The position numbers and the translations under genes are program-made. The notes beneath the pieces are model-generated. The model was not told where the DNA came from, ran no database searches, and saw nothing but the letters and a program-made list of their open reading frames with translations. This document shows positions 4,330 through 61,113 of a DNA stretch of 64,000 bases, in pieces. Origin of the DNA: an uncultured Alphaproteobacteria bacterium. GTDB taxonomy: Bacteria; Electryoneota; RPQS01. Numbering within the stretch: the first letter of the stretch is position 1; each line of letters starts with the position of its first letter. The DNA lies in contig CAYORN010000002.1 in assembly GCA_964406405.1 (NCBI GenBank), positions 248,025 through 312,024 of the forward strand, read 5' to 3'.

Positions 4330-6918
4330 ATGAAATCTTTTGGCGTTTTTTCAGCTTGTGTTCTGATGATCGTTTGTACTTTAGCGCCGGTCCGTGCGGA
4401 CCACGTGACGCGCGGCCCGATTTCGCCGCCGCGCGCGATCACCGGCATGGAACCGATGTTGCCCTCGCAAATCGGTCCCGACAACGGCAATCACCCCAAC
4501 GCGGGGCGCGCGCTGGATGAACCCGTCGGCGTCACGTATGCCGCAGGCACGTCATGGTACGACCTGGGGCATAACGGCAGTGCGGGGAAGATGATCGGCG
4601 TGGATGATTCGGGCTATGTGCATCTCGTGTGGACGAAGGGGATGGATAATGCGAATACGAGTCGCTACGTGTATTTCAACGTCTGGAATCCGAACACGCA
4701 GGCGATGGAATCCACCGTCGGAGAGCGCATTGACACGATCTTGTCCACGCGTTCGGGGTTCATCGCGCTGGCGGTGATGGGCGGCGGGTGGGCGTTTCCC
4801 GCATTTCACGAGATTCTGCCCAGCGGCGGGGGGTTGCCTCATGCCGCGGGCGGGATGAGCCTCATGGCGCGCACGCTGAATTTCGGTGTGACCGAGCCGG
4901 CGTGGCTCAATTCCCGGCAGTTGATCTGGCCCAAGATTGCCGTGGGGCGCGACAGCGTGGTGCACATGCTGACCACCGAGAATACTGTACCCTACGCGGT
5001 GTTTTACTCGCGGGGGCTGCCGAACTGGACGAGCCGCACGATCCAATGGCAAGACGTGGGCGGCGCGCAGTACGTGCAGATGGGATCAGCGGGCTATGTT
5101 TCGGCGGACGTTTGCGTGTCGCCAGTGTCGGATCGCATGGCCATGGCCTGGACCGATTATCGTCCGGGCAGCACGCAGAATTCGTACAATCAGGATGTCT
5201 TTTATCGCGTGTCGGAAGACGGCGGGCTGAACTGGAGTGACCTGCTCAACATCACGCAGTTCATGCCGGAAGACACGCACCGGGCGTTTGCCGATCTGAG
5301 CCTGCTGTTCGACGCGCAGGACGATCTGCACATTGCGTTCTCGACGTCGTGGTTTGACGAAACCAGCGGAACCAATTCAAACCAAAGCGGCCGCATCTGG
5401 CACTGGCGCGAAGGGTCGGACTCCATCTCCGCGTTGGGAGACGGGTGGGCAACCGGGCCGGCCATTCCCGGCAATTTTCTGCGCAATGCCTGCCGTCCGA
5501 GCCTGGCGCTGGATACGACGACAGGATATTTGTACTGTTCCTACCAGTGGTACGACCTGAACTCGTATTCGGTGAGCAACTACTACAACGCCGACGTGTG
5601 GATGACAGCTTCAACGGACAACGGCGCGCATTGGTCGGTGGGGCGCAATGTCACGACGACCACGCCGGTGTCGAATCCCTCGCCGGCGAGTGAGTGTTTG
5701 AGCGAGCGCGATATCACTCTGGCCGAACATGTGACCTACGCGAACGGCACGGGATACCTGCATTTGGAGTATGAACTGGATGCGGATGCGGGCGGATCAC
5801 CGCAGTTTGAAGGGGTGACCACCCTAAACACGGTGTATTACCAGCGGATTCCGGTGGACTCGATTTCGCAGACGCCGCTCATGCCGTCGTTTCCGTTTCA
5901 TCTCGGACCGCCCATTCCTCCTGACACGGGCCGCTGCTGCTATGGCAATCCGACGCAGCCGCAGTGCGCATGGCTGACGCTCGCAGCGTGCAACGGACTG
6001 AACGGAAGCTGGGACAGCACGCTGACCTGCGACACTCCGTGTCCGATTCCCGCGACGGGGCGTTGCTGTTACGGCGATTCGGCACAACCGGATTGCGCCA
6101 TGCTGATCCGTGTGGCCTGTCTCGCCTTGCAGGGAGGTTGGGACAGCACCTTAACCTGTGCCACACCGTGCCCGGTGTTCATCGAATGTTCCATCCAGGA
6201 TGAAGAAAACACGCATTGCAACCTGACCGGCGCGCCGATCCCCGATGGCGACCCAAACGGAGTGGATCTTGTCATCAACGTGCCGGTGCGCTATCACATC
6301 ACGGACCTGAATGTGGGCTTGGACATCAGCCACACGCAGTTGACGGATTTGGAAATCACGCTGCGATCACCGGGAGGAACGTCGGTCACGCTGATTTCGC
6401 ACCAGATCGTGGGCGCGAATTTCCGCTGCACGGTGTTTGATGATGAATCTCCGATCTGGATCTGGGATGGCACGCCACCGTACAACGGCAGCTTTAAGCC
6501 GGGGTTGCCGCTGAATGCGTTCGACGGACAAATGGCGCAGGGCAACTGGACGCTGCACGTGAGCGACACCGTGCAATTTGAACCGGGCACGCTCAATTGG
6601 GCCTGTCTTGAGTTCGCCTATGATTACATTGACGCGGCGGACGACGTTCCGCTGCCGGTGGAGTATGCGTTCTCTGCCTATCCGAATCCCTTCAATCCGG
6701 CGACCACATTGAGCTTCAGCGTCGCGGCGCCGGGTGATGTTCAATTGCAGCTCTTCAATCTCGCAGGGCAGCGGGTGCGCACGCTGGTGGATGGTCGCTA
6801 TGAAACCGGAACCTATCAGGTACAACTGGACGCGCGTGATCTGCCGTCGGGAGTTTATTTCTCACGCTTCACGGCCGGGACGTTTGTGAAGACGGAGAAG
6901 TTGGTATTGATGAAATAG
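4330..6918 (+). CDS. Secreted BNR/Asp-box repeat protein with a proprotein-convertase P-domain and a T9SS C-terminal sorting domain
   Basis: Signal peptide. SxDxGxTW-like motifs (STDNGAHW, SEDGGLNW). P-domain signature DLEITLRSPGGTSVTLISH...GNWTLHVSD. C-terminus YPNPFNPATTLSFSV...GVYFSRF...LVLMK. Shine-Dalgarno AGGAG upstream. Confidence 0.7.
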   Translation: MKSFGVFSACVLMIVCTLAPVRADHVTRGPISPPRAITGMEPMLPSQIGPDNGNHPNAGRALDEPVGVTYAAGTSWYDLGHNGSAGKMIGVDDSGYVHLVWTKGMDNANTSRYVYFNVWNPNTQAMESTVGERIDTILSTRSGFIALAVMGGGWAFPAFHEILPSGGGLPHAAGGMSLMARTLNFGVTEPAWLNSRQLIWPKIAVGRDSVVHMLTTENTVPYAVFYSRGLPNWTSRTIQWQDVGGAQYVQMGSAGYVSADVCVSPVSDRMAMAWTDYRPGSTQNSYNQDVFYRVSEDGGLNWSDLLNITQFMPEDTHRAFADLSLLFDAQDDLHIAFSTSWFDETSGTNSNQSGRIWHWREGSDSISALGDGWATGPAIPGNFLRNACRPSLALDTTTGYLYCSYQWYDLNSYSVSNYYNADVWMTASTDNGAHWSVGRNVTTTTPVSNPSPASECLSERDITLAEHVTYANGTGYLHLEYELDADAGGSPQFEGVTTLNTVYYQRIPVDSISQTPLMPSFPFHLGPPIPPDTGRCCYGNPTQPQCAWLTLAACNGLNGSWDSTLTCDTPCPIPATGRCCYGDSAQPDCAMLIRVACLALQGGWDSTLTCATPCPVFIECSIQDEENTHCNLTGAPIPDGDPNGVDLVINVPVRYHITDLNVGLDISHTQLTDLEITLRSPGGTSVTLISHQIVGANFRCTVFDDESPIWIWDGTPPYNGSFKPGLPLNAFDGQMAQGNWTLHVSDTVQFEPGTLNWACLEFAYDYIDAADDVPLPVEYAFSAYPNPFNPATTLSFSVAAPGDVQLQLFNLAGQRVRTLVDGRYETGTYQVQLDARDLPSGVYFSRFTAGTFVKTEKLVLMK

Positions 6919-6936
6919 ATTCCGGCCGGGTTACGT

Positions 6937-6962
6937 CCAACACCCCGGAGGGTGTTGGCTAG
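6937..6962 (+). terminator. Hairpin CCAACACCCC-GGAG-GGGTGTTGG after the stop at 6918
   Basis: Stem-loop read directly. Confidence 0.45.
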
Positions 6963-7114
6963 TCATGACCTGACTCGGCGATGTTCAAGAAGAGAGTGCG
7001 AGCGATTGCGCTCTCTTTGTTTTGCGCAGCGGCGGGCACAGAGACTGTGGCAAAGAAAGGCTGGAGGTAGGGTGAGCTTCCCTCCACACTCCGGCCCGCC
7101 GCGGCGCGCTTAGA

Positions 7115-8194: not shown

Positions 8195-8210
8195 GGGAAG
8201 TCCTTGAGGT

Positions 8211-8229
8211 AAAATTGAAAAATGAAAAG
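8211..8229. promoter_or_regulatory. Conserved upstream motif AAAATTGAAAAATGAAAAG (CTTTTCATTTTTCAATTTT on the gene strand)
   Basis: Shared with 9317-9343, upstream of the gene starting at 9313. Confidence 0.4.
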
Positions 8230-8381
8230 CGAAAGAACAAACATGAGATCCTTCCACCGAAGACGGTGTCAGGATGACAATGCTTTGATTTGTGGTTGTT
8301 GTAGTATGGGTCGGCTGCTCAATTCTCGTGCTCGTGTGCTTTGGATTAGCAGCCGACACCGCGACCGGGCGGAACAGAGAT

Positions 8382-8446
8382 TTCGGGCGGGTTCTTGGAC
8401 AGACGGTCGGAGACCGCCACTAGTATTTGTGGAACCCGCCTCGGCA
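8382..8446 (+). repeat. Solo copy of the IS200/RAYT-associated REPIN (TTCGGGCGGGTTCTTG...GGAACCCGCCTCGGC)
   Basis: Aligns end-to-end with 30226-30286, 30301-30363, 61049-61113 and the inverted copy at 29577-29637. Confidence 0.6.
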
Positions 8447-8456
8447 GAACTAAGCA

Positions 8457-8900: not shown

Positions 8901-8924
8901 CTTTTCCTTTTGTGGTTGGTTATA

Positions 8925-9004
8925 TGACAGCGGACAACTGACAAGCCGACAAGCTGACAGAAGGAGAATCACATTTTATCTCAGCATGTCGGAATGTCGG
9001 TTTG
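8925..9004. repeat. Inverted arrays of CTTGTCRG octamers (TGACAG..CTGACAAGCCGACAAGCTGACAG ... CATGTCGGAATGTCGGTTTGTCAG)
   Basis: Read directly. Paralog of 3611-3698. Confidence 0.6.
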
Positions 9005-9313
9005 TCAGCTTCTTCTTACGGGTGTGATCTTGTACGTCTCGTTGAAGAGCTTGCGCGCCGCGCGCCGAGCAAGCAGGAGCGCATCGCCTTGCAGCGTGTA
9101 GGCAAGTTGCGGTTCGGAGCATTGCGGAATCGGTCCGGTGAGTTCCAAGAGCGCTTTCAATTCGCGCTGGAACTCTTGTTCGTAATGCGTCGCGCGCAGG
9201 GACAGGTCTTCATAGGTGTGTGCGGCTTTGCGGAGCTGGTCCAGGAGCTGATCGAGATTCAGATCGGCTGGGTTCTCGAGTTGCCCGATGAGGGGGGAGA
9301 TGGGGTTTGGCAT
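9005..9313 (-). CDS. Hypothetical small protein of the phage-like module
   Basis: ORF 9005..9490, trimmed to MPNPISPLIGQ at 9313, directly after the conserved AAAATTGAAAA motif. Confidence 0.3.
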   Translation of the reverse strand: MPNPISPLIGQLENPADLNLDQLLDQLRKAAHTYEDLSLRATHYEQEFQRELKALLELTGPIPQCSEPQLAYTLQGDALLLARRAARKLFNETYKITPVRRS

Positions 9314-9696
9314 GGGGAAAATTGAAAATCGAAAAATGAAAAGTAGGGGGGAAGCGACGAAGATGCGGTGGGGGAAGACGCTCCTGTTCAAAAGTGACGG
9401 GCATAATGTACTATTTGACAAACGAAAAGTCAAGAACATTTCTAATAAAATGTACATCTGATTGTGTTTTCTGATATTTAATTTGAACACACGGACAAGT
9501 GCGTCCAGTTACAAATTCTGTTTGAACAAATGAATCCGTGCTTAGCGAAGGAAAGCACACTCTGGGTCAGTAAAATGAAACATGCCGTGGCGAGAGGCTG
9601 AATTGCCTCGACCCAAATGCGTGATTGGTTTGAAAACTATGCCAATCTCTTTGTTTGGTCAATTCAGATTTGAATGCGATCCGGCCGGACAAAATG

Positions 9697-13369: not shown

Positions 13370-13552
13370 CGAAATTGCAAATCCCAAACTGGAAATCCAA
13401 AATTCCAATCAGAACGAACCCCCGAGAGGTTCTGGACGCCCGCGCTTCGAGGACTTGCGCGGTGTCCAGAATGACAATTGAAGAAACGCCGGGCTGGCTT
13501 ATGTACATCGTGCACTTGTTGTGTCTATGCATGATCCGCCTCGGCGAGACGA

Positions 13553-14716: not shown

Positions 14717-14721
14717 GACGT

Positions 14722-14773
14722 GAGACCTGAGACTTGAGACTTGAAAGGCGGCTTGAAGGCCGCCTTTTTTTTG
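14722..14773 (+). terminator. (GAGACYT)3 heptamer array fused to a rho-independent terminator GGCGGC-TTGAA-GGCCGCC-TTTTTTTT
   Basis: Read directly. Sits 6 nt after the stop at 14716. Confidence 0.7.
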
Positions 14774-14970
14774 TTCACAAACGACTCGCCGTGGCGGGTC
14801 CATGCGTGACGAGAACAGCAATAACATGGGAACAGAGACCCGCCCGGCTACCTTAACAGCATTGCAGCGGGGCAGGTCTCAAGTGAGAGATCACGTGACG
14901 AGCCTGGCTGGCGATGGAGGATTTCGGTACACCCGGACCTGCCGCCGCGGCGGTTTTGTTCATCTTTTAC

Positions 14971-15000
14971 TTGACAAGGTCACCATATGGTGACTATATT
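14971..15000 (+). promoter_or_regulatory. Sigma70-like promoter (TTGACA at 14971-14976, TATATT at 14995-15000) overlapping the perfect palindrome GGTCACCATATGGTGAC (14978-14994); TetR operator
   Basis: Read directly. The palindrome sits between -35 and -10, directly upstream of the TetR gene. Confidence 0.6.
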
Positions 15001-23210: not shown

Positions 23211-24431
23211 ATGAATATTCCTGTCCTCTTCCGCGTATCGCTGCGCGCGCTGCTGCGTAATAAAATGCGCTCATTCTTAACGATGCTGGGCATCGTGATC
23301 GGCGTGGCGGCGGTGATTTCGATGGTGAGCATTACGAGCGGCGCGCGCACCGCCGTGAAGTCGCAGATCTCCTCGCTGGGCGACAACGTGTTCATGATTT
23401 TCTCCGGCTCGTTCAGCCGCTCGGGAACGCGCATGGGCTTCGGCACGCGGCAGAATCTTACGCTGGAAGACGTGCAGGCGATCCGCGAGCAGTCCCCCAG
23501 CATACGCTACGTCAGTCCGATGGTGCGATCGAGCGGGCAGCTTGTGTTTGCCGATCAGAACTGGACGACACAGCTCTACGGCGTTTCACCGGAGTATCTC
23601 GACATTCGGCGCTATGAAATCGCCCACGGCCGCATGTTCTCAGAGACCGACGAGCGCGGCTCCGCCAAGGTGGCCGTCGTCGGACAGACCGTCGTGGACA
23701 ATGTGTTCGGCGGCAGCGATCCGGTCGGCAGCATTGTGCGTGTGAAGCGCATGCCGTTTGAAATCATCGGCCGGCTCGCCCCCAAAGGCCAATCCTCGAT
23801 GGGGCAGGATCAGGATGATGTCGTACTGGTGCCGCTCTCGACGGCCGTCAAGAAATTTCAGGGCGGCGAAACGCGCGTGAACATGATCGTCGGTTCAGCG
23901 GTTACCTCCGAAGCTGTCCCGCAGGCGCAAGACGAGATCTCGACTGTGCTCCGCGCGCGCCATCGCATCGGCGCCGCTGACGACGATGATTTTATCATCC
24001 GCACGCAGTCCGAAATTTCCCAAGCCGTGGAAGGCCAGACGCAGACGATGACGGTTCTGCTCGGGTCGGTCGCGCTGGTATCACTGCTCGTCGGCGGCAT
24101 CGGGATTATGAACATCATGCTCGTCTCGGTCACCGAGCGCACGCGCGAGATCGGCATTCGGATGTCCGTCGGCGCGCGTGAGCGCGACATCCTCTGGCAA
24201 TTCCTGCTCGAAGCGATTTCGCTCTCTGCGCTGGGCGGCCTGCTGGGGATTGCGCTCGGCTACACGGTCTCGGTGATCATCAGCAAATTTGCGGGATGGC
24301 CGACACAAATTGATCCCGCCACGGCGTTCATCGCGCTTGCGTTTGCCAGTCTGGTCGGCATTTTCTTCGGCTTCTACCCTGCCCGCAAAGCGTCACGATT
24401 GGATCCGATTGAAGCGCTGAGATACGAATAG
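23211..24431 (+). CDS. ABC transporter permease (MacB/FtsX-like, 4-TM)
   Basis: N-terminal TM segment, a large periplasmic domain and a C-terminal FtsX-like region (GIRMSVGARERDILWQFLLEA). Confidence 0.8.
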   Translation: MNIPVLFRVSLRALLRNKMRSFLTMLGIVIGVAAVISMVSITSGARTAVKSQISSLGDNVFMIFSGSFSRSGTRMGFGTRQNLTLEDVQAIREQSPSIRYVSPMVRSSGQLVFADQNWTTQLYGVSPEYLDIRRYEIAHGRMFSETDERGSAKVAVVGQTVVDNVFGGSDPVGSIVRVKRMPFEIIGRLAPKGQSSMGQDQDDVVLVPLSTAVKKFQGGETRVNMIVGSAVTSEAVPQAQDEISTVLRARHRIGAADDDDFIIRTQSEISQAVEGQTQTMTVLLGSVALVSLLVGGIGIMNIMLVSVTERTREIGIRMSVGARERDILWQFLLEAISLSALGGLLGIALGYTVSVIISKFAGWPTQIDPATAFIALAFASLVGIFFGFYPARKASRLDPIEALRYE

Positions 24432-24483
24432 GCCACAAGGCAGATCTTGAACCTGATCTGTTTAGTCCGACTATTGACAGGTT

Positions 24484-25476
24484 TTGGAAAACATGAGATC
24501 TCGCATTGTCAGTTCTAATTCGTTGCGTAACAGACTCTTCGTGAAACTGCTGACGTGCATGCTTGTCATTGCGACAGCCATATCTTGCTGGGCAGATGGT
24601 GATGATGACTGGATTCCGAGTCTCTATGATCCGTATGAATGGGTGCCGATAGAACAGCATCCCGCCTGCGATCCTTTGGATACTCCACCCGATACCGGTG
24701 TGTTTAACCAGACCTATGTGCTTGCCGCTATTCCTAAGTTTGGCTACCCCTACCACTACACCTTGGTTGCGGGCATTAATGACACGCTGAGTATTACCAT
24801 CAGCCTCAGCAATTTCACGGAAAAGGAGTATGACTTGACAGGGAAGGACTATGGCCAGTGGTTTGCGCCGCAGGTCTATCAAATGCATGTTACCAACTCT
24901 GCAGGTCCCGCATTTCGAGACTCCACACAATTGGGATACCGGGTTCGCGGGTGGTACAGCAGTCAAATTCGGCATCCCGACCAATCCAAATTGCCGGCTC
25001 GGGCATCGTGGTATGACATCAAATTGGATGTATGGAATTTGCCGGAAGGCGACTTCCAAATGTGCGTCTTTCCAACAGACAAGATTCCGAGCGATTTTGG
25101 TGCTCGGACGAGCGGAGGTGGATTTGAGTTCTATCCCGCCCGAGATCTGGCGGACAGTTGCAACGGCTACGAAGGTCTGTTCTGGCGCACTTGGGAGGAC
25201 AGTAATTTTGCTGATGCGGGTAAATGGGTGGATGAGATCATGAACATCAATCCCAAATCCGTGCCGGGCTGGTGGCTCAAGGCTCACAACGCGCTTAGTT
25301 TGCAGGATACATCGGCGGCCAAAGATGCCTTTGACAGCGCCATTGAATTTCTGAACAGCGCCTCTGATCCTGCCATGCCAGATTCGACGACGCGAGCACT
25401 GAGCACCCACGAGAAGAACTATGTTGCCTGGCTCGAAGTAATTCTTCCCTATTATCGTGCGCAGCTGGGACCATAA
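24484..25476 (+). CDS. Secreted hypothetical protein, paralog A of a tandem pair
   Basis: Signal peptide. About 45% identical to 26011..26985 (WNLPEG.FQ.C..PTDK.PSDF, PGWWL.A.NAL.LQDT.AAK.AFD.AI..LN...DPAMPDST, C-terminus RAQLGP). Confidence 0.5.
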   Translation: MENMRSRIVSSNSLRNRLFVKLLTCMLVIATAISCWADGDDDWIPSLYDPYEWVPIEQHPACDPLDTPPDTGVFNQTYVLAAIPKFGYPYHYTLVAGINDTLSITISLSNFTEKEYDLTGKDYGQWFAPQVYQMHVTNSAGPAFRDSTQLGYRVRGWYSSQIRHPDQSKLPARASWYDIKLDVWNLPEGDFQMCVFPTDKIPSDFGARTSGGGFEFYPARDLADSCNGYEGLFWRTWEDSNFADAGKWVDEIMNINPKSVPGWWLKAHNALSLQDTSAAKDAFDSAIEFLNSASDPAMPDSTTRALSTHEKNYVAWLEVILPYYRAQLGP

Positions 25477-25531
25477 CCATAAGCGGCGGGTTTCGCCGAC
25501 TTAACCCGCCCCGACAACATATCTATCTGAG

Positions 25532-25572
25532 CCGGGGCACGATGAACAGATCGTGCCCCCGGTTTTGTTTCG
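25532..25572. terminator. Bidirectional terminator CCGGGGCACGAT-GAACAG-ATCGTGCCCCCGG-TTTTGTTT
   Basis: Lies between the convergent genes ending at 25476 (+) and 25574 (-). Confidence 0.6.
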
Positions 25573-25573
25573 A

Positions 25574-25882
25574 TTACGAGCGGCTGATCCACGCGAACAC
25601 TGCCGCGACGCCGGAGAGCACAATGCCCGTCATCACGCCCACCGCCCAGCGGCGAAAGGATTCGAGTGCAACGAGTCGTTCGTGATGCGCCGAGACCGAT
25701 GAATCCACGGTGCGGGAAAGCGCGGAGAGCTCCTTGCGCATACCGATGATTTGCTCGGTGAGATCGCCGACGCGCGCTATGCGGATTGGGCTGTATGGAT
25801 AGCCGACTTCTCTCAGGAGTGTCGCCAGGATATTGCTCATGAATTCGGACATGCTGTGGGGATGGAGCATCTGCATACCCAA
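25574..25882 (-). CDS. Small protein with a C-terminal TM helix (XhlA/holin-associated-like); start uncertain
   Basis: Coiled region followed by WAVGVMTGIVLSGVAAVFAWI. Confidence 0.3.
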   Translation of the reverse strand: MGMQMLHPHSMSEFMSNILATLLREVGYPYSPIRIARVGDLTEQIIGMRKELSALSRTVDSSVSAHHERLVALESFRRWAVGVMTGIVLSGVAAVFAWISRS

Positions 25883-26010
25883 ACCTGCACTCCAGGCCTC
25901 ACAATCATGGATTCAACTTGTGTGTATCCCAATAACCTCCATTTCATGCTCGGAGATTCGATCTTTGCGAATAGCAGCAAGGATTCATTCACGGTTAGGA
26001 GGGCTCACCG

Positions 26011-26985
26011 ATGAAGGCGTTATTGTGCAAACAATTGGCCTCGTTTGTTGCTCGGATAGCGTGCCTGTGCGCTACTCTTCTGCTTGTACCGGGCACAACT
26101 TTGTCCCAGCCAGAAGATACTGATTTCTATGTTCCCGAAATGTGGCGAGAGTACATTGAACCCCGCGCCTGCTTAGAGTATGCGTTCAAGCCGGACACCG
26201 GGCTACATAATAGCAACATTGTCTTTTATGGAGATTTGCCGGCTTTCGGCTATCCCCTTCATACCTGCTTGGTAAGCGGCATCAATGATACATTGAACGC
26301 TGGGATAACTCTCTACAACGGGACGTCAAAGGACTACGTCATAAAGGGAACAAAGTATGAGTTCTGGTTTGCTCCTCAGATCTATCAACTGTTTGTAGCA
26401 GCTACAGGCGGGTTGCCCTTTCGAGACTCTACGGAAATCGGCTACCGTTTCCGTTACTGGTCTCACGGGCGGATCAGAATACCAACCATTGATGCACTGA
26501 CAGTTGAAGAATCCGGTCGCTCGTCGCTCAAAATTGACATCTGGAATTTGCCAGAAGGCCGCTTTCAGATATGCTTGCAGCCGACAGATAAGGTTCCCTC
26601 CGACTTCAACGCAAAGGCTGACGGATATGTATTTGACTATCATGCTGCACAGAATCTGGCCGACAGTTGCAACGCATACGAAGCGTGTTTTTGGCGCGCA
26701 GATGAAGACAGCAATTTTTCCGCGGCAAAAGACTGGGCGGGGAAGATCACTGGCATCAATCCTGCTTCGGTACCCGGTTGGTGGTTGACAGCCTATAATG
26801 CGCTTCAGTTGCAGGATACGACGGCGGCTAAGAGTGCCTTTGATAAGGCTATCGATTACTTGAATAAGGGTGCGGACCCCGCCATGCCGGATTCCACCAA
26901 ACGGCCTTTGATGGAAATCGAGAAACTGTATATTCTGTGGCTGCAACGGTGGCTGCCGTGGAACCGCGCGCAACTTGGGCCGTAA
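26011..26985 (+). CDS. Secreted hypothetical protein, paralog B of a tandem pair
   Basis: See paralog A (24484..25476). Confidence 0.5.
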   Translation: MKALLCKQLASFVARIACLCATLLLVPGTTLSQPEDTDFYVPEMWREYIEPRACLEYAFKPDTGLHNSNIVFYGDLPAFGYPLHTCLVSGINDTLNAGITLYNGTSKDYVIKGTKYEFWFAPQIYQLFVAATGGLPFRDSTEIGYRFRYWSHGRIRIPTIDALTVEESGRSSLKIDIWNLPEGRFQICLQPTDKVPSDFNAKADGYVFDYHAAQNLADSCNAYEACFWRADEDSNFSAAKDWAGKITGINPASVPGWWLTAYNALQLQDTTAAKSAFDKAIDYLNKGADPAMPDSTKRPLMEIEKLYILWLQRWLPWNRAQLGP

Positions 26986-27039
26986 AAACACACCCAGATC
27001 CGACGCGGCGATACTGCGAGATGAACACTACAAGAGAAG

Positions 27040-27070
27040 CGGCGACCCTTGAACAGGTCGCCGTTTTTGC
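27040..27070. terminator. Terminator GGCGACC-CTTGAACA-GGTCGCC-GTTTTTGC
   Basis: Lies between the convergent genes 26985 (+) and 27092 (-). Confidence 0.55.
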
Positions 27071-27091
27071 TTCACATTTCCTATTCCAATT

Positions 27092-27826
27092 CTACTTCAC
27101 CCCGGTCACACCCGGCTTGGCCTCCGGGGCAGTCTCGGGGGCGGGCTTGGGCGGGGGGTCAAGCGCGGCAATCTTACGCCGCTCGATTTCGCCAAAGATC
27201 AGGTAGTAGCTGCCGATCCCCGCCGCAATGACTAATCCGATCAAGCTGTACAGCGTGACGTGGTACCGCCCGATCGTGTAGTGCGGATTGCCGACAAAGA
27301 GAATCGCGATATTGGACAGAAAAATCAAGAGGCGGATTTCGGTCGGCCCGATCCCGCCGAAGGAAATCTTGAACACGCCGCGCGTCATCGAAACCAAATT
27401 CACCAGCGTCATCATGGCGTAATAGCTGATCACCAGCAACAGCGCCACACGCATGTCCATCAGCGGCGACAAGCCCATTCCGAAGCAGATGAAGAACACC
27501 GCCAGCGTGTCGCTGTTGTGATCTACGAAAAAGCCGTAGCGGTTGCGCTCGATGTGCCGCACGCGCGCCAGCGTTCCGTCCAGACTGTCCCCCCACCAGT
27601 GCAGAATGAGACCGAAATTGGCCAGCCAGAGCCATTGCAGGCCAAAGGTTGTGAGCCAATACGAGCAGCCGATCATCAGCGCCGCGAATTGCGCCACCGC
27701 CGTCAGATGATCGGGCACGACCCACGCCGGCAGCCGCTTCGCCATCCACGGCAGCACGCGCCGCTCGAAGGGGCCGAGCGATATGTCATTGATGCGGAAT
27801 TTCGGGGTCTCGCCTTGAATGGTCAT
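27092..27826 (-). CDS. CDP-alcohol phosphatidyltransferase family protein
   Basis: Motif WWGDSLDGTLARVRHIERNRYGFFVDHNSD, i.e. D-G-x2-A-R...G...D...D. Multi-TM. Confidence 0.7.
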   Translation of the reverse strand: MTIQGETPKFRINDISLGPFERRVLPWMAKRLPAWVVPDHLTAVAQFAALMIGCSYWLTTFGLQWLWLANFGLILHWWGDSLDGTLARVRHIERNRYGFFVDHNSDTLAVFFICFGMGLSPLMDMRVALLLVISYYAMMTLVNLVSMTRGVFKISFGGIGPTEIRLLIFLSNIAILFVGNPHYTIGRYHVTLYSLIGLVIAAGIGSYYLIFGEIERRKIAALDPPPKPAPETAPEAKPGVTGVK

Positions 27827-28190
27827 GCCGCTTCTCCCGGAAGATAAGTTTTTCGTTCAGCCAGAATTTGATAAACGGCCCGGCCGCCATCCCGAGGATG
27901 TTGGCCAACAGATAATGCACGCCGAAAAAAGTGGAAAGCGTCCACAGAATCGAAACGTTTGCCGTCAGATCCACCGCGCCGGTCGCCGCATTGTAGAGCA
28001 AAAGCTGCTTCAAGAACGGCGGGCGGTTCTGGCGATCGCGCCATGCCCAGTAGCGCATCCAGATGAAGTTGTGAATGATGGCGATCTCGATCGCCATCAT
28101 ACTCGCCGGGATAATCGGAATGTACAGCACACCCTTGAACAGATACAGGCAGGCCGTATTCACGAGCATCCCGAGCCACGCCACCGCCAT
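27786..28190 (-). CDS. GtrA-family membrane protein
   Basis: MAVAWLGMLVNTACLYL...HNFIWMRYWAWRDR...FIKFWLNEKLIFR. ORF trimmed to M156 of the 289-aa track ORF. Confidence 0.55.
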   Translation of the reverse strand: MAVAWLGMLVNTACLYLFKGVLYIPIIPASMMAIEIAIIHNFIWMRYWAWRDRQNRPPFLKQLLLYNAATGAVDLTANVSILWTLSTFFGVHYLLANILGMAAGPFIKFWLNEKLIFREKRHDHSRRDPEIPHQ

Positions 28191-28261
28191 GAACTTCCCG
28201 CTACGCAACACGAACGCGAGCCGCGCGGGCTCCGCTGGGGTCGTGGGCGGCTGATTGTCTT

Positions 28262-29662
28262 TCACAACGACCCGCTGGAGAAAATGGTGTAGCTTTCCGC
28301 AAGCCAGACGATGACGAAGAGCACCGCCATTCCTATAACGCCGATCCGTTGAACCCTTGACGCGTTCCGCCATGCTCCCGGCGTCGAGAGCGCCGCGGCG
28401 CCCAGCAAAAGCGCGGGGAGCATCGGCGCATGATAGCGCGGCAAACCATACATGATCAAGGCCGAGAACGTTCCCAAGACGAGTTGGAATATTAGGAAGC
28501 CGCGCCACGGCGTATTCGTCACGAGACCCAACCCGGCAATTCCTGCCAGTACAATCAGTGCGTAGCCGAGCGCAGTAAGAATTAACAGCAGCAGCGGAAC
28601 CGCCCTGAGTTTCTCGGCTAACGACACATCCGCCCGCGGCGCATAGTGCGCCCACAACGCCATGTCCGTGCTCCAGAAGTAGGCAAACTTCTTGGGCCAG
28701 AGCTTGAGCGTTGCGAACGGATGCGACCGCGCATAATTCAGCGCCAATTGCGTCGCGTGCAGATCGCGCTCGGTTTCTGTGGTGCGCACGAATTCCAGCG
28801 GCGCGGTCACGACGTCATCGAAGCGGTACGCGCCGGTAGCCTGCGGATTGTTGCCGATATAGAGATTGATTCCCGAGTTCGTATTCAGGGCAAACCGATT
28901 GACGGCAGCGCTGTTTCGAATCATCCACGGCAAAATGGTCACAAACATTACAGCAAAGATCACGAGTGCCGCGCGCACGCGGCGATGATAGAGCAGGTGC
29001 AGCAGAATGGCCGCGGCGAGCAGCGCTCCTGTCGCGCGGGTGAGCAGCAGCAGACCAAGGATAAACCCCACGGCAATGCAACGCCGCACTGCGTTCGCTC
29101 TTTCGAGGCGATCATAAACGACCATCGCCAGCACCCACAAGAACACGAACAGCGTCTCAGTGAGAAAGAGCGACGTATAGAGAATTGCCGCCGGATACAG
29201 GAGCCACGCCCCGGCCATCATCACAGCCACGCGGTCCGCGTACCTGCGCCGCACCGAGGCAAAGAGCAGAAGCGCCGTTGTCAGATCGAGCAATAACTGG
29301 AAATAGAACACCGCGTGCTCGCCGCCGAAGAGTCGGATGAGCAAGCCCGCCGTCGCCGGAAAGAGCAGATCGCGATATGCCGTCGGCGCGCCGTGGAACG
29401 CAAAGCCGTGACCCTGCGCGACGTTCTGCGCGATCTCGTAATACTCCGGCTCATCGGGCGCGCGGAGCAACGCTCCGGCCGGGCGTAGTTCAATCGCCGC
29501 GAGCCGCAGCAGCGCGCCGACGATCAAGAGCAGCCAAAGGGTGCGGGGGAGGTGCAGAATTTTCAAACTTAAGTTGCCGAGGCAGGTTCCAGTAGAATTA
29601 TGAAGTGCCGAGCACGGACCCGAGAACCTGCCCGAAATCCGGCCACACACGTTCCGAGGCAA
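28262..29662 (-). CDS. Glycosyltransferase family 39 (ArnT/PMT-like) integral membrane protein
   Basis: Multi-TM N-terminus with a periplasmic-loop pattern, including LLLTRATGALLAAAILLH. 466 aa. Confidence 0.55.
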   Translation of the reverse strand: MPRNVCGRISGRFSGPCSALHNSTGTCLGNLSLKILHLPRTLWLLLIVGALLRLAAIELRPAGALLRAPDEPEYYEIAQNVAQGHGFAFHGAPTAYRDLLFPATAGLLIRLFGGEHAVFYFQLLLDLTTALLLFASVRRRYADRVAVMMAGAWLLYPAAILYTSLFLTETLFVFLWVLAMVVYDRLERANAVRRCIAVGFILGLLLLTRATGALLAAAILLHLLYHRRVRAALVIFAVMFVTILPWMIRNSAAVNRFALNTNSGINLYIGNNPQATGAYRFDDVVTAPLEFVRTTETERDLHATQLALNYARSHPFATLKLWPKKFAYFWSTDMALWAHYAPRADVSLAEKLRAVPLLLLILTALGYALIVLAGIAGLGLVTNTPWRGFLIFQLVLGTFSALIMYGLPRYHAPMLPALLLGAAALSTPGAWRNASRVQRIGVIGMAVLFVIVWLAESYTIFSSGSL

Positions 29663-30363
29663 GTTTCACGAGCACAGGGATTAAACGTCATCGTTTCCGA
29701 AAACCTGCCTGAAAACGTCGCGCTTAGAGAATCCTGACAGTCACATTTCCTTTGCCCAGTCCAAGGTACTCATGGATGCTCGACCAGCGATAATTCTCTG
29801 CCGTCTCCACCAAACCGGATCGCACAGGATTATTATGTAGGTATTTGAGCTTCACAATACATGCTCCGAGAGGCACCGACACATCGTCATAGCGTGGATG
29901 TCACAATGGCTGCCCGAGATTCTCGTGCAGACCCAGCATCTTTGATGTGTGTTGCTTGAAGCTCTTTATCAGCGCGGGGATGCCGGCGTTTGCTGTTTCT
30001 TGATGTAGCAGCGCGTGAAAATGATCCGGCATAAGAACATACCCTATGCAATCAATTGCATGCCGCACACGATAATATTCGAAACATCGCAGAACATTCT
30101 GACAATCCTCTTCATGCACGAAGCGAAGACCCCGAATCCGCGTTACGGTGGTCACAAAATGGTTGCTACCCGCGACATTAAGCTGCAGATGGCGCTGCCG
30201 CATGAGGAGATGCTGACGGTTGGATTTCGGGCAGGTTCTCGCACACTGCTCAACAGACAACTGCTCTCGAGGAACCTGCCTCGGCGCTTCGATCTGACAT
30301 TTCGGGCCGGTTCTTGGATTCGATTACGGTGTACCGCAAATTGCCTTGGAACCTGCCTCGGCG
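29577..30363. mobile_element. IS200/IS605-family (RAYT-like) element: HuH Y1 transposase gene flanked by inverted REPIN copies
   Basis: Left arm 29577-29637, which is the reverse complement of the right arms at 30226-30286 and 30301-30363. Each arm is a hairpin of CGGGCAGGTTC...GAACCTGCCTCG. Confidence 0.6.
29901..30260 (-). CDS. tnpA: IS200-family HuH tyrosine transposase (TnpA/RAYT), possibly C-terminally truncated
   Basis: HuH motif YVLMPDHFHALL. Only about 35 aa follow it before the stop, so the catalytic-Tyr helix may be missing. Confidence 0.55.
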   Translation of the reverse strand: MSVEQCARTCPKSNRQHLLMRQRHLQLNVAGSNHFVTTVTRIRGLRFVHEEDCQNVLRCFEYYRVRHAIDCIGYVLMPDHFHALLHQETANAGIPALIKSFKQHTSKMLGLHENLGQPL

Positions 30364-30364
30364 A

Positions 30365-31249
30365 TTAATGGACATTCGCGAACTTGTACGCCAGCCCCAG
30401 CGACAGCGTCTCTTTGAACCGCCCGCCGAGGTCAAGCTCTTTGTCGTACAGCAACTGCCACCCGAGGCTCACCTGCAGCAGCGACGTGATGCTTGTGCGC
30501 AACGTATTGTCCCAGTTGAGATCCGCCGTCTTCCAATAATCATTCGGCAGCACGTCACTCTGCGCATTGAAGAGTGCCTGGAACACGGTGAGTTTCGAGG
30601 CCAAGCTGTATTTCGCCTTCGGCGAGCCGAGCACCAGATCCGTCACCCAATCAATCCCGCCGTCGTTGGCGGTTTTCGTGGCGTGATTCATATGCTGACG
30701 GAGACCGAAACCGATGCGCGTCGTCAGTACTCTCACGTCTGGCACCTTAATCAGATCGCGGGCCACACCGAGAGCTTCCGTCAGAACCACTGGATTGAAG
30801 TAGATCTTGCTCGGTCCCGTGGCGTCGAGAAACTGCGATTCCAGCGTTCCCGAAAAATACGGGTCCACCGCCCAGCCTTTGGTCAGGCGCAGAATGCTGT
30901 CATAACGGATCTTGTCCGCGGATTTTTTCGGCTTCTCCCAGTGCTTAGTGCTGTCAATTTGCGTGTGGGTCTGGCCGAATTCGAGCTTCAGCTCGTTATT
31001 GAAGAGCCAGCTCTTCGAAAATTGCCGCTCCGCCGTGGCGCGCAGACTCGACACCCAGATAATCGTTCCGGATTCTCCGCCCGCCCAATTGTCCGAGTAC
31101 ACGGCCTGCGTCAGGCCTAAACTGGTTTCGATGCCGACTTTCCATGCCGGCATCACCTTGGTTGTATCAGCCGTCGGCGCTTGCGCCAAGACGAGCTGTG
31201 AAAAACAGAAAAGCGAAAAAACGAAAGCGTATCGTCGGCGAAGAATCAC
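30365..31249 (-). CDS. Outer-membrane beta-barrel protein (DUF3078-like)
   Basis: Signal peptide MILRRRYAFVFSLFCFSQLVLAQA. Alternating amphipathic beta-strands. Ends in an aromatic-rich strand. Confidence 0.4.
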   Translation of the reverse strand: MILRRRYAFVFSLFCFSQLVLAQAPTADTTKVMPAWKVGIETSLGLTQAVYSDNWAGGESGTIIWVSSLRATAERQFSKSWLFNNELKLEFGQTHTQIDSTKHWEKPKKSADKIRYDSILRLTKGWAVDPYFSGTLESQFLDATGPSKIYFNPVVLTEALGVARDLIKVPDVRVLTTRIGFGLRQHMNHATKTANDGGIDWVTDLVLGSPKAKYSLASKLTVFQALFNAQSDVLPNDYWKTADLNWDNTLRTSITSLLQVSLGWQLLYDKELDLGGRFKETLSLGLAYKFANVH

Positions 31250-31294
31250 ACAAGCTCCTTTGTGAGATGAGAAAGTGCACGTAAGGGACAGTAC

Positions 31295-31726
31295 TCAGCC
31301 GCGGGACTTGAGCAGGTCACGAATTTCGGAGAGTAGCACTTGGTCCTTGGTCGGCGCTGGCGGAGCGGCAGGGGCCGCGGCTTCCTGGCGCTTCATTCGA
31401 TTGATGCCCTTCACGACCATGAAAATGGCGAAGGCGACAATGAGGAAATTAATGATGGTGTTGACGAAGAGTCCGACGTTCAAGGAAACGGCGCCCGCGG
31501 CCTTGGCCTGCGCGAGTGATGCATAAGGTCCCGCAGGATTGCCATCTTTCAGCAGCAGGAACATGTTTGAGAAGTCCACATTGCCGAGCAACAGCCCGAT
31601 CGGCGGCATGAGTACATCGGCTACGAATGAGCCGACAATGGCTCCAAAGGCCGCACCGATGACGATACCGACCGCCAAATCTACCACGCTGCCACGCATG
31701 GCAAAGGCTTTGAATTCCTTGAACAT
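31295..31726 (-). CDS. mscL: Large-conductance mechanosensitive channel
   Basis: [44 protein letters not shown] is the canonical MscL N-terminus and TM1. Confidence 0.85.
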
Positions 31727-31902
31727 TGCTTCGTATCTCCCGTTTGGTTGGATTTTGTTTATGATACTGCAGGCCAGAACTTGTTGAGCAAAAAACCGCC
31801 GGGGGTGCGTGGTCGCTCCGGCGGGTGTATCTCAGGGGATCAGTTAAGCGCTAGCGCATACGGGAGACGCGCCGAAAACGGGGGTCAGTCCGGTGGCAAT
31901 CT

Positions 31903-32391
31903 CTACAAGTCCTCGCGCGCTTCCTGCGCGTCCGGAACTTCGTTCTTCAAACTGGCCAGGCAATCCATGGCGGCCTGCGCTCCCGCGGCGCAACTCGTGA
32001 CGTGCTTGACGAACGCCGCCAGGCGGTTCAGCGTATCATCGTCCAAATGATGTTCCATCACGCACGCTTCGCGCTCGGCCGCCTCTTTTGTCACGCCCAG
32101 CACTTCAATCAAGAATTTCCGCGTGAGGTTGAAGCGGTCGCAGATCTCCTGCCCGACGCGCTTGCCGCGATTGGTGAGCGAAATCCGCCCGTAGTTTTCC
32201 TGCATCAAAAGCCCCACATCGCGCAGGCAGTTCACGGCGTGCCGCGCCGTGGGTAGGCGCACACCTTGCGACCGCGCCAGGTCGGTTAGCCGCACGCTGT
32301 CGCCCGCGCGAGAGAGCTGGTAGAGCGCCCGGAGGTAGTTTTCCCGCGTCGGAGTTAGGGGGTTGTCCTTGAGGACAGTATGTTGGTGCAT
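31903..32391 (-). CDS. DtxR/MntR-family metal-dependent transcriptional regulator
   Basis: TRENYLRALYQLSRAGDSVRLTDLARSQGVRLPTARHAVNCLRDVGLL is a winged-helix region, followed by a metal-site region. Confidence 0.7.
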   Translation of the reverse strand: MHQHTVLKDNPLTPTRENYLRALYQLSRAGDSVRLTDLARSQGVRLPTARHAVNCLRDVGLLMQENYGRISLTNRGKRVGQEICDRFNLTRKFLIEVLGVTKEAAEREACVMEHHLDDDTLNRLAAFVKHVTSCAAGAQAAMDCLASLKNEVPDAQEAREDL

Positions 32392-32479
32392 GATAATATT
32401 AACCTTACGGTTATCGTTCCTTCTAACAATTAAGCAATATTTGAGGAAATGTCAAATTGAAAGCTCGCAGCCTCAATCG

Positions 32480-32692
32480 TCACATTCGCTTGCCCACCAG
32501 CACTCTCGCGGCAAAAAAGAGCGCGGCGATGAGAATGAAGAGGATCAGCTTGTACGGCAATCCCCACAGGAAAATGATGAGCACCAGTCCCAGAAACGCC
32601 ACGACGCTCCACTCGCGGTAGCGCGGCGGAAAGACAAGATAAATGCCGATCGCGATCACCGCAATGGCCAGCAGAAGAAGACCATTGTCCAT
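32480..32692 (-). CDS. Small two-TM membrane protein
   Basis: Hydrophobic 70-aa ORF immediately upstream of agcS. Confidence 0.3.
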   Translation of the reverse strand: MDNGLLLLAIAVIAIGIYLVFPPRYREWSVVAFLGLVLIIFLWGLPYKLILFILIAALFFAARVLVGKRM

Positions 32693-32703
32693 GAGTGACC
32701 TCC

Positions 32704-34074
32704 TTAGTTACGTACTTGCTCCGCGGAAACAGGTTCCGGTTCCGTTGCGTGTTTCTTTTCCCACAAATGCGCGCGGGTTTCCGCCACTATCACACCACTC
32801 AACGCCAGCAGCGAAATCAGATTCGGCACGGCCATCAGACCGTTCGTGATGTCCGCAAACGTCCACACCGACTTAATGGAAACCACGGAGCCGACCATCA
32901 CCGCCATCACCCACATCCAGCGATAGTACTTGATGACGCCGGTGCCGAAGAGATACTCCGCCGCCTTCTCGCCGTAGTAGGACCAGCCGAGAATCGTCGA
33001 AAACACAAACGTCAACAGTGCTACCGCGAGAATGATCGGCCCGATGGTGTTGAATTCATTGAATGCGGCGTGAGTGAGCGCTGCGCCGTTCAGTCCTTGC
33101 GTCCACAAGCCGGAATTCACGACCACCAATCCGGTCATTGCGCACACCACGACCGTATCCCAAAATGTGCCTGTACTCGATACCAACGCTTGTCGCACCG
33201 GATTCGTGGTTTGCGCCGCGGCGGCCACAATCGGCGCGCTGCCCAGTCCCGACTCATTTGAAAACAATCCGCGCGCCACGCCATAGCGCAGCGCTTCCCG
33301 AACTCCCGCCCCTAAGAATCCGCCGACCGCCGCCTGCCCGGTGAACGCCGTGCTCAAAATCAGCTTGACCGTCTCGCCCAGCGTGTCGAACTTCCAAATC
33401 AGAAGAATCAAACAGCCGAGGACATAGAAGACCGCCATGAACGGCACCAGGCCTTCACACACGCGGGCGATGGACTTGATTCCGCCGACAATCACCAGCG
33501 CCGTGAACGCCGTCATGATGAGGCCGCTGATCCACGGCGAAACGTGAAACGTCTCATTCACCATCGTCGAGATCGAGTTCGCCTGCACCATGTTGCCGAT
33601 GCCGAAGGCGGAGATCGCCGTGAACACGGCGAACAGCACCGCCAGCCACTTCTGCTTCATGCCGCGTTCGATGGCATACATCGGCCCGCCGGAGAAGTGT
33701 CCCTGCTCGTTCTTGACGCGGTACTTCACCGCGAGCAGCGCTTCGCCGTACTTGGTCGCGATGCCGAACACGCCGGTCAGCCACATCCACAGCACGGCTC
33801 CCGGCCCGCCTGCGGCAACTGCCGTGGCCACACCGACGATGTTGCCGGTGCCGATCGTCGCCGCCAGCGCGGTGGTCAGCGCGCCGAAGTGACTGATGTC
33901 ACCCTCGCCTTCTTTGGTTCGCTGGAACGAGAGCTTGATCGCCTTGCCCAGATACCGCTGGATGAACCGCAGGCGGAAGGTCAGGTACAGGTGCGTCCCG
34001 ACCAGCAAAATCAGCAGAGGCGGTCCCCAGACGAAATCGGCAATCTGACCCAGAAGATGCTCCGCAGTGGGCAT
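32704..34074 (-). CDS. agcS: Sodium:alanine/glycine symporter (AGCS family)
   Basis: 456 aa, multi-TM. Conserved segments GGPGAVLWMW..G..GIATKYGEALLAVKYR. Confidence 0.8.
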   Translation of the reverse strand: MPTAEHLLGQIADFVWGPPLLILLVGTHLYLTFRLRFIQRYLGKAIKLSFQRTKEGEGDISHFGALTTALAATIGTGNIVGVATAVAAGGPGAVLWMWLTGVFGIATKYGEALLAVKYRVKNEQGHFSGGPMYAIERGMKQKWLAVLFAVFTAISAFGIGNMVQANSISTMVNETFHVSPWISGLIMTAFTALVIVGGIKSIARVCEGLVPFMAVFYVLGCLILLIWKFDTLGETVKLILSTAFTGQAAVGGFLGAGVREALRYGVARGLFSNESGLGSAPIVAAAAQTTNPVRQALVSSTGTFWDTVVVCAMTGLVVVNSGLWTQGLNGAALTHAAFNEFNTIGPIILAVALLTFVFSTILGWSYYGEKAAEYLFGTGVIKYYRWMWVMAVMVGSVVSIKSVWTFADITNGLMAVPNLISLLALSGVIVAETRAHLWEKKHATEPEPVSAEQVRN

Positions 34075-34340
34075 GAAAACTCCTTCAATTAGTCCTGCGA
34101 CTCAATATAGAACGGCCATAGGATAATTGCAAATCGTTGTTTTTCTGTGCAAGACATTGTTTCTGACCCACAATGATGTCGTTTCCCTATTTGTTCTCAG
34201 TATTTTTTGTTTCGATTCAAAATATCTTGCCGGAACAGCATTTATAATCTATCTTGTGTACTTGTTGGTATGTTTTGATCGTTCGCGAATAAGTTTCTGT
34301 TTTCATTCTATGTGAACTGTTTCGCAAAGGAGTAAGCGCC

Positions 34341-61048: not shown

Positions 61049-61113
61049 TTTCGGGCAGGTTCTTGTCTGACTGTCCGTCACGTTGTAAGCTCGCCGTGGA
61101 ACCTGCCTCGGCG
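61049..61113 (+). repeat. Solo copy of the RAYT-associated REPIN (TTCGGGCAGGTTCTTG...GGAACCTGCCTCGGCG)
   Basis: Aligns with 30226-30286. It lies in the promoter region of the gene starting at 60940. Confidence 0.6.

Follow-up and report, generated by a model that had tools for sequence, protein, structure and literature searches.

A RAYT gene interrupted at a conserved tryptophan codon and its cognate REP hairpins in a probably Calditrichota/KSB1-like genome

The window analysed here is a 64-kb stretch of contig CAYORN010000002.1 (G+C content of 56.8 per cent), and its host is probably a Calditrichota/KSB1-like bacterium. On the minus strand, at 29724..30203, the window carries a gene for a tyrosine transposase (RAYT) of the kind that is associated with repetitive extragenic palindromes (REPs). 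Hairpin repeats flank the gene on both sides, and additional copies of the same hairpin lie between other genes; all copy counts given below hold for the window only. We regard it as highly probable that the gene is an inherited RAYT with a cognate family of hairpins, each a single REP, that it has recently acquired an in-frame TGA codon, and that the REP population is being maintained or is slowly decaying. The locus is of a known kind; flanking inverted hairpins and solo intergenic copies make up the classic RAYT/REP ('REPtron') layout. A preceding reading of the DNA (hereafter, the sequence-only reading) had located a HuH transposase gene and its repeats at this place and had proposed a RAYT-type enzyme with a flanking inverted hairpin repeat and solo copies. 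Both proposals are borne out, the former by the translation and the arm search and the latter by the family matches and the layout.

The RAYT gene consists of 159 codons and a stop, as judged from its translation and an alignment with 14 homologues. The HuH motif PDHFHALL occupies residues 59–66 and is invariant in the homologue alignment, and the Tyr motif KLKYLHNNPV, followed by YRWSS, is conserved in the C-terminal region in the same frame as the HuH part. Translation of the frame 30263..29721 gives …MRQRHLQLNVAGSNHFVTTVTRIRG…PDHFHALL…ENLGQPL*HPRYDDVSVPLGACIVKLKYLHNNPVRSGLVETAENYRWSS…VRIL*. Because the homologues all begin with MRQRH or MLRRH, the start was set at the ATG at 30203 (MRQRH), which is the predicted true start. 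A minus-strand open reading frame (ORF) at 29901..30260 holds YVLMPDHFHALL and the HuH motif; the homologue alignment led us to reject this 119-aa ORF starting at 30260 as a real gene, its 5' part being a spurious extension into the repeat.

With the in-frame stop read as W, the protein matches the NCBIfam model NF047646 (REP_Tyr_transpos, 'REP-associated tyrosine transposase') with 79.5 bits (E = 2.2e-22; cut-off 80), and in the NCBIfam search no other model, and hence no IS200-type model, matched. The Pfam family Y1_Tnp ('Transposase IS200 like') is matched as well (E = 5.7e-6; 26.9 bits against a cut-off of 23). Homologues in the databases are about 160 aa long. At their source they bear the names 'REP-associated tyrosine transposase [Calditrichota]' or 'RayT', or else are called a transposase from Calditrichaeota/KSB1 metagenome-assembled genomes (MAGs). 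A search against sequences of solved structures returned marginal matches only, the best being ISDra2 TnpA chains (E = 0.008), with Escherichia coli TnpA-REP (4ER8) at E = 0.11. No second RAYT copy is present in the 64-kb window. Taken together, the motifs and family matches identify the predicted protein as a RAYT-type HUH/Y1 enzyme.

The Y1_Tnp assignment, the rank of ISDra2 TnpA among the solved structures, and the hairpins carried at the ends would also suit an IS200/IS605-type insertion sequence, with the flanking repeats as its left and right ends and with solo copies left behind by other copies of the element. We consider this very improbable, as the NCBIfam match is to a RAYT equivalog model, the gene is single-copy in the window, and the flanking hairpins are inverted and doubled, with arms identical to those of solo hairpins that have no transposase remnant beside them. 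The gene order also speaks against it. According to the gene calls on an identical Logan contig, DUF3078, RAYT, PMT_2 glycosyltransferase, GtrA, and CDP-alcohol phosphatidyltransferase genes follow each other on one strand, and the DUF3078–RAYT–PMT_2 order is kept in two homologous loci, L082 and L104, in relatives with 61–67 per cent identity. Between the window gene and its closest orthologues, in L082 and L083 (66–67 per cent identity), synonymous sites are saturated (proportion of synonymous differences, pS, of 0.62–0.78). Because synteny has persisted despite this saturation, we infer a domesticated, vertically inherited RAYT and not an insertion sequence.

The reading frame is interrupted at codon 101 by an in-frame TGA (29901..29903, minus strand; context TTG TGA C), at a position where homologues have a near-invariant Trp (TGG). 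The codon lies 36 codons past the second His of the HuH motif and replaces the Trp of a conserved 'LW' pair, of which the Leu is at least 90 per cent conserved in the alignment. Trp occupies the position in 80 of 86 homologous loci, and it aligns with a conserved Trp of ISDra2 TnpA. The sequence-only reading had described an ORF truncated about 35 aa past the HuH motif and had pointed to a possible frameshift. The truncation is real, and its cause is the single TGA: no frameshift is needed 3' of 29901, as KLKYLHNNPV comes next without a change of frame. Window 24126–36203 is matched at 100 per cent identity by a Logan contig (SRR13723396), itself reported for two samples; the contig confirms the TGA base, although not independently.

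In the comparison with L082 and L083, the proportion of nonsynonymous differences (pN) is 0.21 in the part 5' of the stop and 0.20–0.26 in the part 3' of it. The equality of pN on both sides implies that constraint on the C-terminal part was normal for essentially all of the divergence, and because the Tyr region is in frame and as conserved as the N-terminus, the inactivation should be either recent or leaky. Genome-wide recoding of TGA was considered and rejected, as TGA is an ordinary stop that ends 18 of 46 long ORFs in the window. The simplest reading is a recent TGG>TGA knockout. The sequence-only reading had also supposed that the repeats might be decaying or mobilized in trans. Either may be the case; five copies have almost perfect arms, and no additional decay is seen in the C-terminal coding part.

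An alternative is that the RAYT is still functional, the UGA being a tolerated or programmed leaky stop at which read-through by tRNA-Trp restores the native residue. The cell would then make mostly a 100-aa, HuH-only fragment that lacks the catalytic Tyr, plus a small full-length fraction, which would keep a potentially genotoxic nuclease at a very low dose. Among bacterial stop codons UGA is the leakiest; tRNA-Trp misreads it as Trp, and a C directly after it, as in the TGA C here, makes for weak termination. A point in favor of this alternative is an independent homologue from a different sample (L105:287-766; ENA ERZ13693047 NODE_49681), which is about 46–49 per cent identical to the window gene and has TGA at the same Trp codon. 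It reads …HGVRL-TGA-CNNYDDV…KLNYLHNNPV…PWSS…, with its C-terminus intact and in frame. These two genes have the only in-frame stops among the 86 homologous loci, both at W101, and the lack of relaxed constraint in the C-terminal part and the intact REP arms would suit a functional enzyme too.

Nevertheless, we judge a leaky stop unlikely. TGG>TGA is a single G>A transition, among the easiest nonsense mutations, and the nearest relatives of both TGA-bearing genes carry TGG. The base after the stop differs between the two genes (C in the window gene, T in L105), and no read-through signal was identified. Searches for more homologues ending just before the Trp yielded no additional cases beyond the window gene (P0003) and the L105 gene (P0025). 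Two candidates for a further same-site truncation were rejected: P0215 (L106) is a pseudogene with a frameshift and a deletion, and P0016 has a mis-called start. The other defects in the family are ordinary, namely a frameshift (L005/P0024), the frameshift with deletion in L106/P0215, and a REP-like insertion in L004. We estimate the chance of a coincidental TGA at the same codon in the window gene and L105 at a few per cent; such a coincidence is plausible because only one transition is needed and the family has several ordinary pseudogenes. A stronger form of the alternative, in which UGA is a recurrent, selected 'dimmer switch' of this RAYT clade that, through near-cognate decoding by tRNA-Trp, yields trace amounts of full-length nuclease and abundant HuH-only fragment, is likewise unlikely. 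If true, it would explain the same-codon TGA in lineages that are about 46–49 per cent identical and have retained intact downstream coding sequence and REP arms.

The repeat associated with the gene is an element of about 62–65 nt, composed of a 5' tag (A/G)ATTT, a 12-bp stem, an apical region of 31–35 nt, and a 3' tail GCG. In the stem, CGGGCAGGTTCT pairs with GGAACCTGCC-T-CG, leaving a conserved 1-nt bulge. The two arms (11–15 nt; CGGGCAGGTTC / GAACCTGCCTCG) are not self-complementary. Their consensus, AGATTyCGGGCRGG…CCYGCCTCGGCGG, is common to the relatives, and the family can be written as the arm pattern CGGGCRGGTYC-N(2-90)-GRACCYGCCNCGGCG. In a MAG whose RAYT protein is 50 per cent identical (L001), the repeat flanking the gene is AGATTCCGGGCAGGTCC-AC-GGACCTGCCTCGGCGGA, which has the same arms around a 2-nt loop and occurs in three copies. 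Loop lengths across the homologous loci range from 2 nt (L001) through 5–8 nt (L005, L002), about 31–37 nt (window, L082, L083, L104, L103, L086, L105), and about 50 nt (L003) to about 85 nt (L084).

Because the same arms form one compact hairpin with a 2–8-nt loop in relatives, the 65-nt unit is best understood as a single REP with an expanded loop. The predicted structure of each element is thus one REP stem-loop and not a doublet of two REPs. The sequence-only reading had called each copy a REP doublet, or REPIN (REP doublet forming a hairpin), and the family 'private'. Neither description is supported, the first on account of the non-palindromic arms and their compact closure in L001, L005, and L002, and the second because the arm consensus recurs at homologous RAYT loci from other metagenomes. 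The term REPIN would apply only under a purely operational definition, that is, two inverted seed sequences close together.

Support for the stem comes from an alignment of 12 sequences, in which it is paired in 96.5 per cent of cells, compared to 36–59 per cent when the partners are slid. Four stem pairs change on both sides, one of them alternating between A-T (seven sequences) and G-C (4 of 12, including the window copy at 8381). The arms are conserved between lineages in which synonymous sites are saturated (pS of 0.62–0.78). The hairpin is strand-specific owing to its bulge and to a T·G wobble in the uppermost part of the stem, which, on these few columns, fits recognition of one strand better than a double-stranded site. 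Neither GTAG nor CGTC is found at either end of the hairpin; the window copies have (A/G)ATTT as their 5' flank, and relatives have ATTC, ATTG, or GTTG there.

In contrast to the arms, which are 91 per cent identical, the six window loops (31–35 nt) have a pairwise identity of 54 per cent, compared to 50 per cent for shuffled sequences. A conserved inner hairpin was rejected, as loop-only folding is no better than that of shuffles (z from +0.6 to -1.5). The notion that loops are captured 'spacers' was also rejected, since they are partly shared between tandem or orthologous copies. The tandem downstream copies in L105 have about two-thirds of the loop in common, and the 9-mer GATTCGATT stands at one offset both in the loop of the window copy at 30300 and in the REP upstream of the gene in L082, an orthologous locus. 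From this sharing it follows that loops are inherited and not made anew at insertion. In the best reading, constraint acts on the foot, bulge, and flanking tags, and the apical region drifts. REPs with loops of 2, about 33, and about 85 nt and invariant arms, set against saturated neutral divergence, amount to a natural deletion/insertion experiment, which points to the foot of the hairpin, its bulge, and the flanking tags as all that recognition requires.

Two hairpins lie on each side of the RAYT gene, and the pair upstream has the opposite orientation to the pair downstream; within each side, the whole units are in tandem and not inverted. Upstream, both on the plus strand, are a proximal copy at 30225..30285, 21 nt from the ATG, with perfect arms and a 31-nt loop (63.1 bits under the covariance model described below), and a distal copy at 30300..30362, which ends 2 nt from the DUF3078 stop and has one uncompensated A>C change in its left arm (66.1 bits). 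Downstream, both on the minus strand, are a proximal copy at 29653..29714, 9 nt from the RAYT stop (57.2 bits), and a distal copy at 29576..29637, 9 nt before the likely TTG start (29566) of the PMT_2 gene (71.1 bits). The former has degenerate arms, one pair having changed in both arms in a compensatory way (C-G>T-A) and another being a G-T wobble; the position of the latter is orthologous in L082. The flanking repeats are real, as the sequence-only reading held, but its count of one inverted and two direct copies becomes 2+2, the degenerate copy at 29653-29714 having been missed. The inverted polarity of upstream and downstream units was found at every homologous locus inspected (L001, L002, L005, L082, L083, L104, and L105).

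All REP copies in the window are intergenic, and they range from perfect to decayed. Away from the RAYT gene, three strong copies and three weak relics are present in the 64 kb. Arm pairs confirm the two solo copies reported by the sequence-only reading. One of these (8381..8445, plus strand; 61.7 bits) has the compensated A-T>G-C variant of the stem; it lies between two genes, one for a phage-type major head protein and the other for a virion structural protein. The other (61049..61112, plus strand; 64.6 bits) has perfect arms and lies in a 675-nt spacer between the stop of a DUF4175-like gene (61280) and the start of a gene for a protein sorted by the type IX secretion system (T9SS) (60604). 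The neighbors had been given as capsid and decoration genes and a T9SS promoter, which is roughly right: the head protein match and the virion structural protein agree, and the REP lies about 445 nt upstream of the gene with the T9SS sorting domain. The third strong copy is a diverged REP (CCGGGCGGGTC…GACCCGCCACGGCG, with a 36-nt loop) at 14785..14852 on the minus strand (47.8 bits), and in the relative L103 the orthologue of the spacer at window 14717-14986 also holds REPs.

The three weak relics are all candidates. A degenerate REP (GCGGGGCAGGTC…GACCTGCCGCCGCGG, with a loop of about 57 nt) at 14863..14951 on the plus strand was found by eye and scores weakly (8.4 bits; E = 1.7); with its neighbor, it forms the only REPIN- or BIME (bacterial interspersed mosaic element)-like inverted pair of whole units in the window (14785-14951), and this pair is degenerate. 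A putative decayed REP at 6917..6982 on the plus strand, directly after the stop of the gene at 4330..6918 (17.6 bits; E = 0.004), has arms that resemble the L084 variant (TTCCGGCCGGGTTAC…). At 13484..13548 on the plus strand, a possible relic has kept its right arm and tail CCGCCTCGGCGAG, and its left arm has decayed (12.3 bits; E = 0.13). As a separate observation, the loop of the 6917-6982 candidate contains, at 6930–6958 and directly 3' of the stop of the gene 4330..6918, a perfect 9-bp hairpin, CCAACACCC-CGGA-GGGTGTTGG.

These scores derive from a covariance model that was built from 12 copies and run unfiltered over the whole window; it returns the six copies found as arm pairs and the copy at 14785-14852, and all seven were in its training set. 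A search by arms alone finds TTTCGGGCAGGTTCT and GGAACCTGCCTCGGC as correctly spaced pairs at six places, at 29653-29714 in degenerate form. The composite pattern GGCAGGTTC-N30-40-GAACCTGCC has three exact matches, compared to 0.00 expected from 100 shuffles, and the arm 11-mer with one mismatch allowed has six, compared to 1.41 expected. A metagenome-wide scan for the exact pattern of the two arms returned 19 stretches, of which only L086 and L103 look true and none is from the window organism; the others were rejected as chance GC-rich palindromes. Scans of viral contigs for the arm pattern and of the window with Rfam and tRNA models gave no match.

The positions of the hairpins raise the possibility that they are host regulatory or structural elements, such as mRNA stabilizers, attenuators, or protein-binding sites, and that their association with the RAYT is secondary. 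Every copy is intergenic, and most sit in arrays of genes on one strand, which makes their transcription probable; some adjoin a stop or start codon, as do those 2 nt past the stop of DUF3078 and 9 nt ahead of the start of PMT_2; and the stem is conserved with covariation. E. coli REPs, moreover, reportedly influence mRNA turnover (Messing et al. 2012, PMC3479197). As the primary explanation, however, a regulatory role has very little probability in our estimation. Polarity relative to local transcription is mixed, with four of the six strong copies antisense-type and two sense-type, even though the hairpin is strand-specific. The elements belong to no Rfam family and have no terminator-like T-run, and their arm sequence, beyond mere structure, co-varies with the RAYT lineage across loci. 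A regulatory role is compatible with the RAYT-based explanation and not exclusive of it.

Under the explanation that we favor, the RAYT would be a vertically inherited, single-copy HUH/Y1 single-strand DNA nuclease-transposase with a cognate REP hairpin family. By analogy with E. coli TnpA-REP and the TnpA of IS200/IS605, the enzyme would recognize the hairpin foot and flanking tag on single-stranded DNA. It would then cut nearby and rejoin the strand elsewhere, dispersing hairpins into intergenic DNA; solo intergenic copies are present in the window and, at other loci, in relatives (L086, L103). Arms would persist either as copies with damaged arms lose recognition or through host selection, and loops would drift. 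After the recent TGG>TGA change at the conserved Trp, the enzyme is probably inactive or made at read-through level only, and the REP population would be maintained or slowly decaying and not expanding.

Several points weigh against this explanation. The NF047646 score falls 0.5 bit below the curated cut-off. The REP census spans 64 kb of the genome only. For six copies to combine perfect or near-perfect arms with unrelated loops, there should be either strong selection on the solo copies or, elsewhere in the genome, many sub-lineages of loops, and neither was observed. A second lineage (L105) with TGA at the same codon fits awkwardly with a gene that is just a pseudogene. Finally, the GTAG tag found in families with known biochemistry (PMC3479197, PMC3733652) is missing from these REPs, and the mechanism is drawn by analogy.

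The closest described counterpart is the E. coli TnpA-REP (RAYT, YafM)/REP-BIME 'REPtron', an HUH and Tyr enzyme of about 160 aa whose C-terminus extends past the IS200 core (Messing et al. 2012, PMC3479197). Its gene is flanked by inverted imperfect hairpins that are also dispersed in intergenic DNA, with a conserved stem irregularity (bulge) and conserved nucleotides 5' of the foot, and all of these traits are matched at the window locus. In agreement with the constraint on foot, bulge, and tags in the window family, E. coli TnpA-REP needs the 5' tetranucleotide and the stem irregularity for binding and cleavage (PMC3479197). The window system differs in its tag (ATTT/ATTC instead of GTAG), in loops that are 31–35 nt long and variable instead of a few nt, in its nonsense codon, and in its protein sequence, whose similarity to 4ER8 is marginal.

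Similarly, the RAYT–REPIN systems of Pseudomonas and Enterobacteria (Bertels and Rainey 2011, PMC3116915; Bertels et al. 2017, PMC5581495) have a single-copy, vertical RAYT in conserved synteny, and domesticated, vertically inherited behavior of RAYTs has been described (PMC5581495). Their cognate repeats also flank the gene and spread extragenically, and their inverted pairs of conserved motifs can form a hairpin. In those systems, however, each half of a REPIN is a REP with its own short palindrome, whereas the window halves are non-palindromic arms of one REP. REPINs also form populations around a master sequence that includes the spacer, whereas the window spacers are unrelated between copies and the window has only the one degenerate inverted pair at 14785-14951.

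The TIRYT or 'TIRtron' systems (Di Nocera et al. 2013, PMC3733652) have in common with the window a RAYT-like gene and inverted, non-GTAG repeats, some of them self-complementary, in moderately abundant families. The GGGGWSAS motif of many of their terminal inverted repeats is absent from the window repeats, which are instead stem-loops homologous to the compact REPs of relatives. In the GTAG-tagged REP superfamily, GTAG or a close variant stands at the hairpin foot, and REP families whose loops are long (up to 27 bp) and variable have already been described (PMC3733652). The TnpA enzymes of IS200/IS605 (IS608, ISDra2) belong to the same HUH/Y1 fold family (Pfam Y1_Tnp), have in ISDra2 the Trp that aligns with the one hit by the TGA, and offer a mechanistic model in their recognition of hairpin ends on single-stranded DNA. 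In contrast to them, the window unit is neither multi-copy nor mobile, its ends are inverted and doubled, and its protein has a RAYT-type C-terminal region (YLHNNPV…WSS).

RAYT/REP systems have so far been studied almost only in Proteobacteria. The window locus and its relatives extend the combination of a single-copy, syntenic RAYT, inverted REPs, and solo copies to a Calditrichota/KSB1-like lineage with a non-GTAG tag. For annotation, the gene is to be labelled a nonsense-interrupted RAYT and not an IS200 transposase, and the 65-nt elements are REPs. The unconstrained long loops and the same-site TGA in L105 are modestly interesting features, and the latter also offers a small clue to the way in which RAYT nucleases may be kept in check.

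Some observations on the relatives stand apart from the above. The L105 gene is itself flanked by long-loop REPs (TTTCGGCAGGGTCGC…GCGACCCTGCTCGGCG), one upstream and inverted, two downstream in tandem. In a Calditrichaeota MAG, DeMMO2_36 (L004:3001-3573), the RAYT homologue is apparently interrupted near codons 95–125 by REP-like repeats of its own, about 100 nt in all (GGGGCATGTGAGGAATGAGGACACATGCCGCCGCG), so that a REP seems to have inserted into the very gene that mobilizes REPs. The MAG MFD05674.bin.2.33 contains two diverged RAYT genes (L001, L005), one intact and the other frameshifted. The two are flanked by different compact variants of the REP (…GGCAGGTCC-AC-GGACCTGCC… vs …GGCAGGGCGAAGACGACCTGCC…), which suggests paired RAYT/REP sub-lineages within one genome.

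The surroundings of the RAYT gene yielded further observations. In L083, the RAYT gene adjoins a Na/Ala symporter gene, which in the window is 2.5 kb away; a comparison of L083:1-660 with window 30218-33306 shows four window genes in between (a 70-aa ORF, Fe-dependent repressor, MscL, and DUF3078), a difference that amounts to a local deletion or insertion beside the REP-flanked gene. The PMT_2 gene call at 28262-29662 (462–466 aa) begins within the REP region, and comparison with L082 and L104 (MK(I/L)…RTLW) suggests TTG 29566, 9 nt after the REP, as the true start. A scan of the RAYT locus for promoters and terminators was not informative, and the GC skew of the window tracks gene orientation and gives no replication-strand information.

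Elsewhere in the window, the minus-strand region 7115-9490 lies between genes for T9SS-sorted proteins and contains three genes, of which one (7115-8359) encodes a product matching a phage major head protein (phrog_3922; E = 5e-36), the next (8457-8972) a virion structural protein, and the third a 161-aa ORF without an assigned function. No terminase or portal match was found among the few ORFs scanned near 7115-9490, and the cluster may be what is left of a prophage, or else a capsid-like system that has been domesticated. Beside the REP cluster, a GC-rich hairpin (AAAAAAGGCGGCCTTCAAGCCGCCTTTC) flanked by a run of A and a short run of T is conserved between window 14741-14770 and L103:3524-3552; it is probably an intrinsic terminator that works in both directions.

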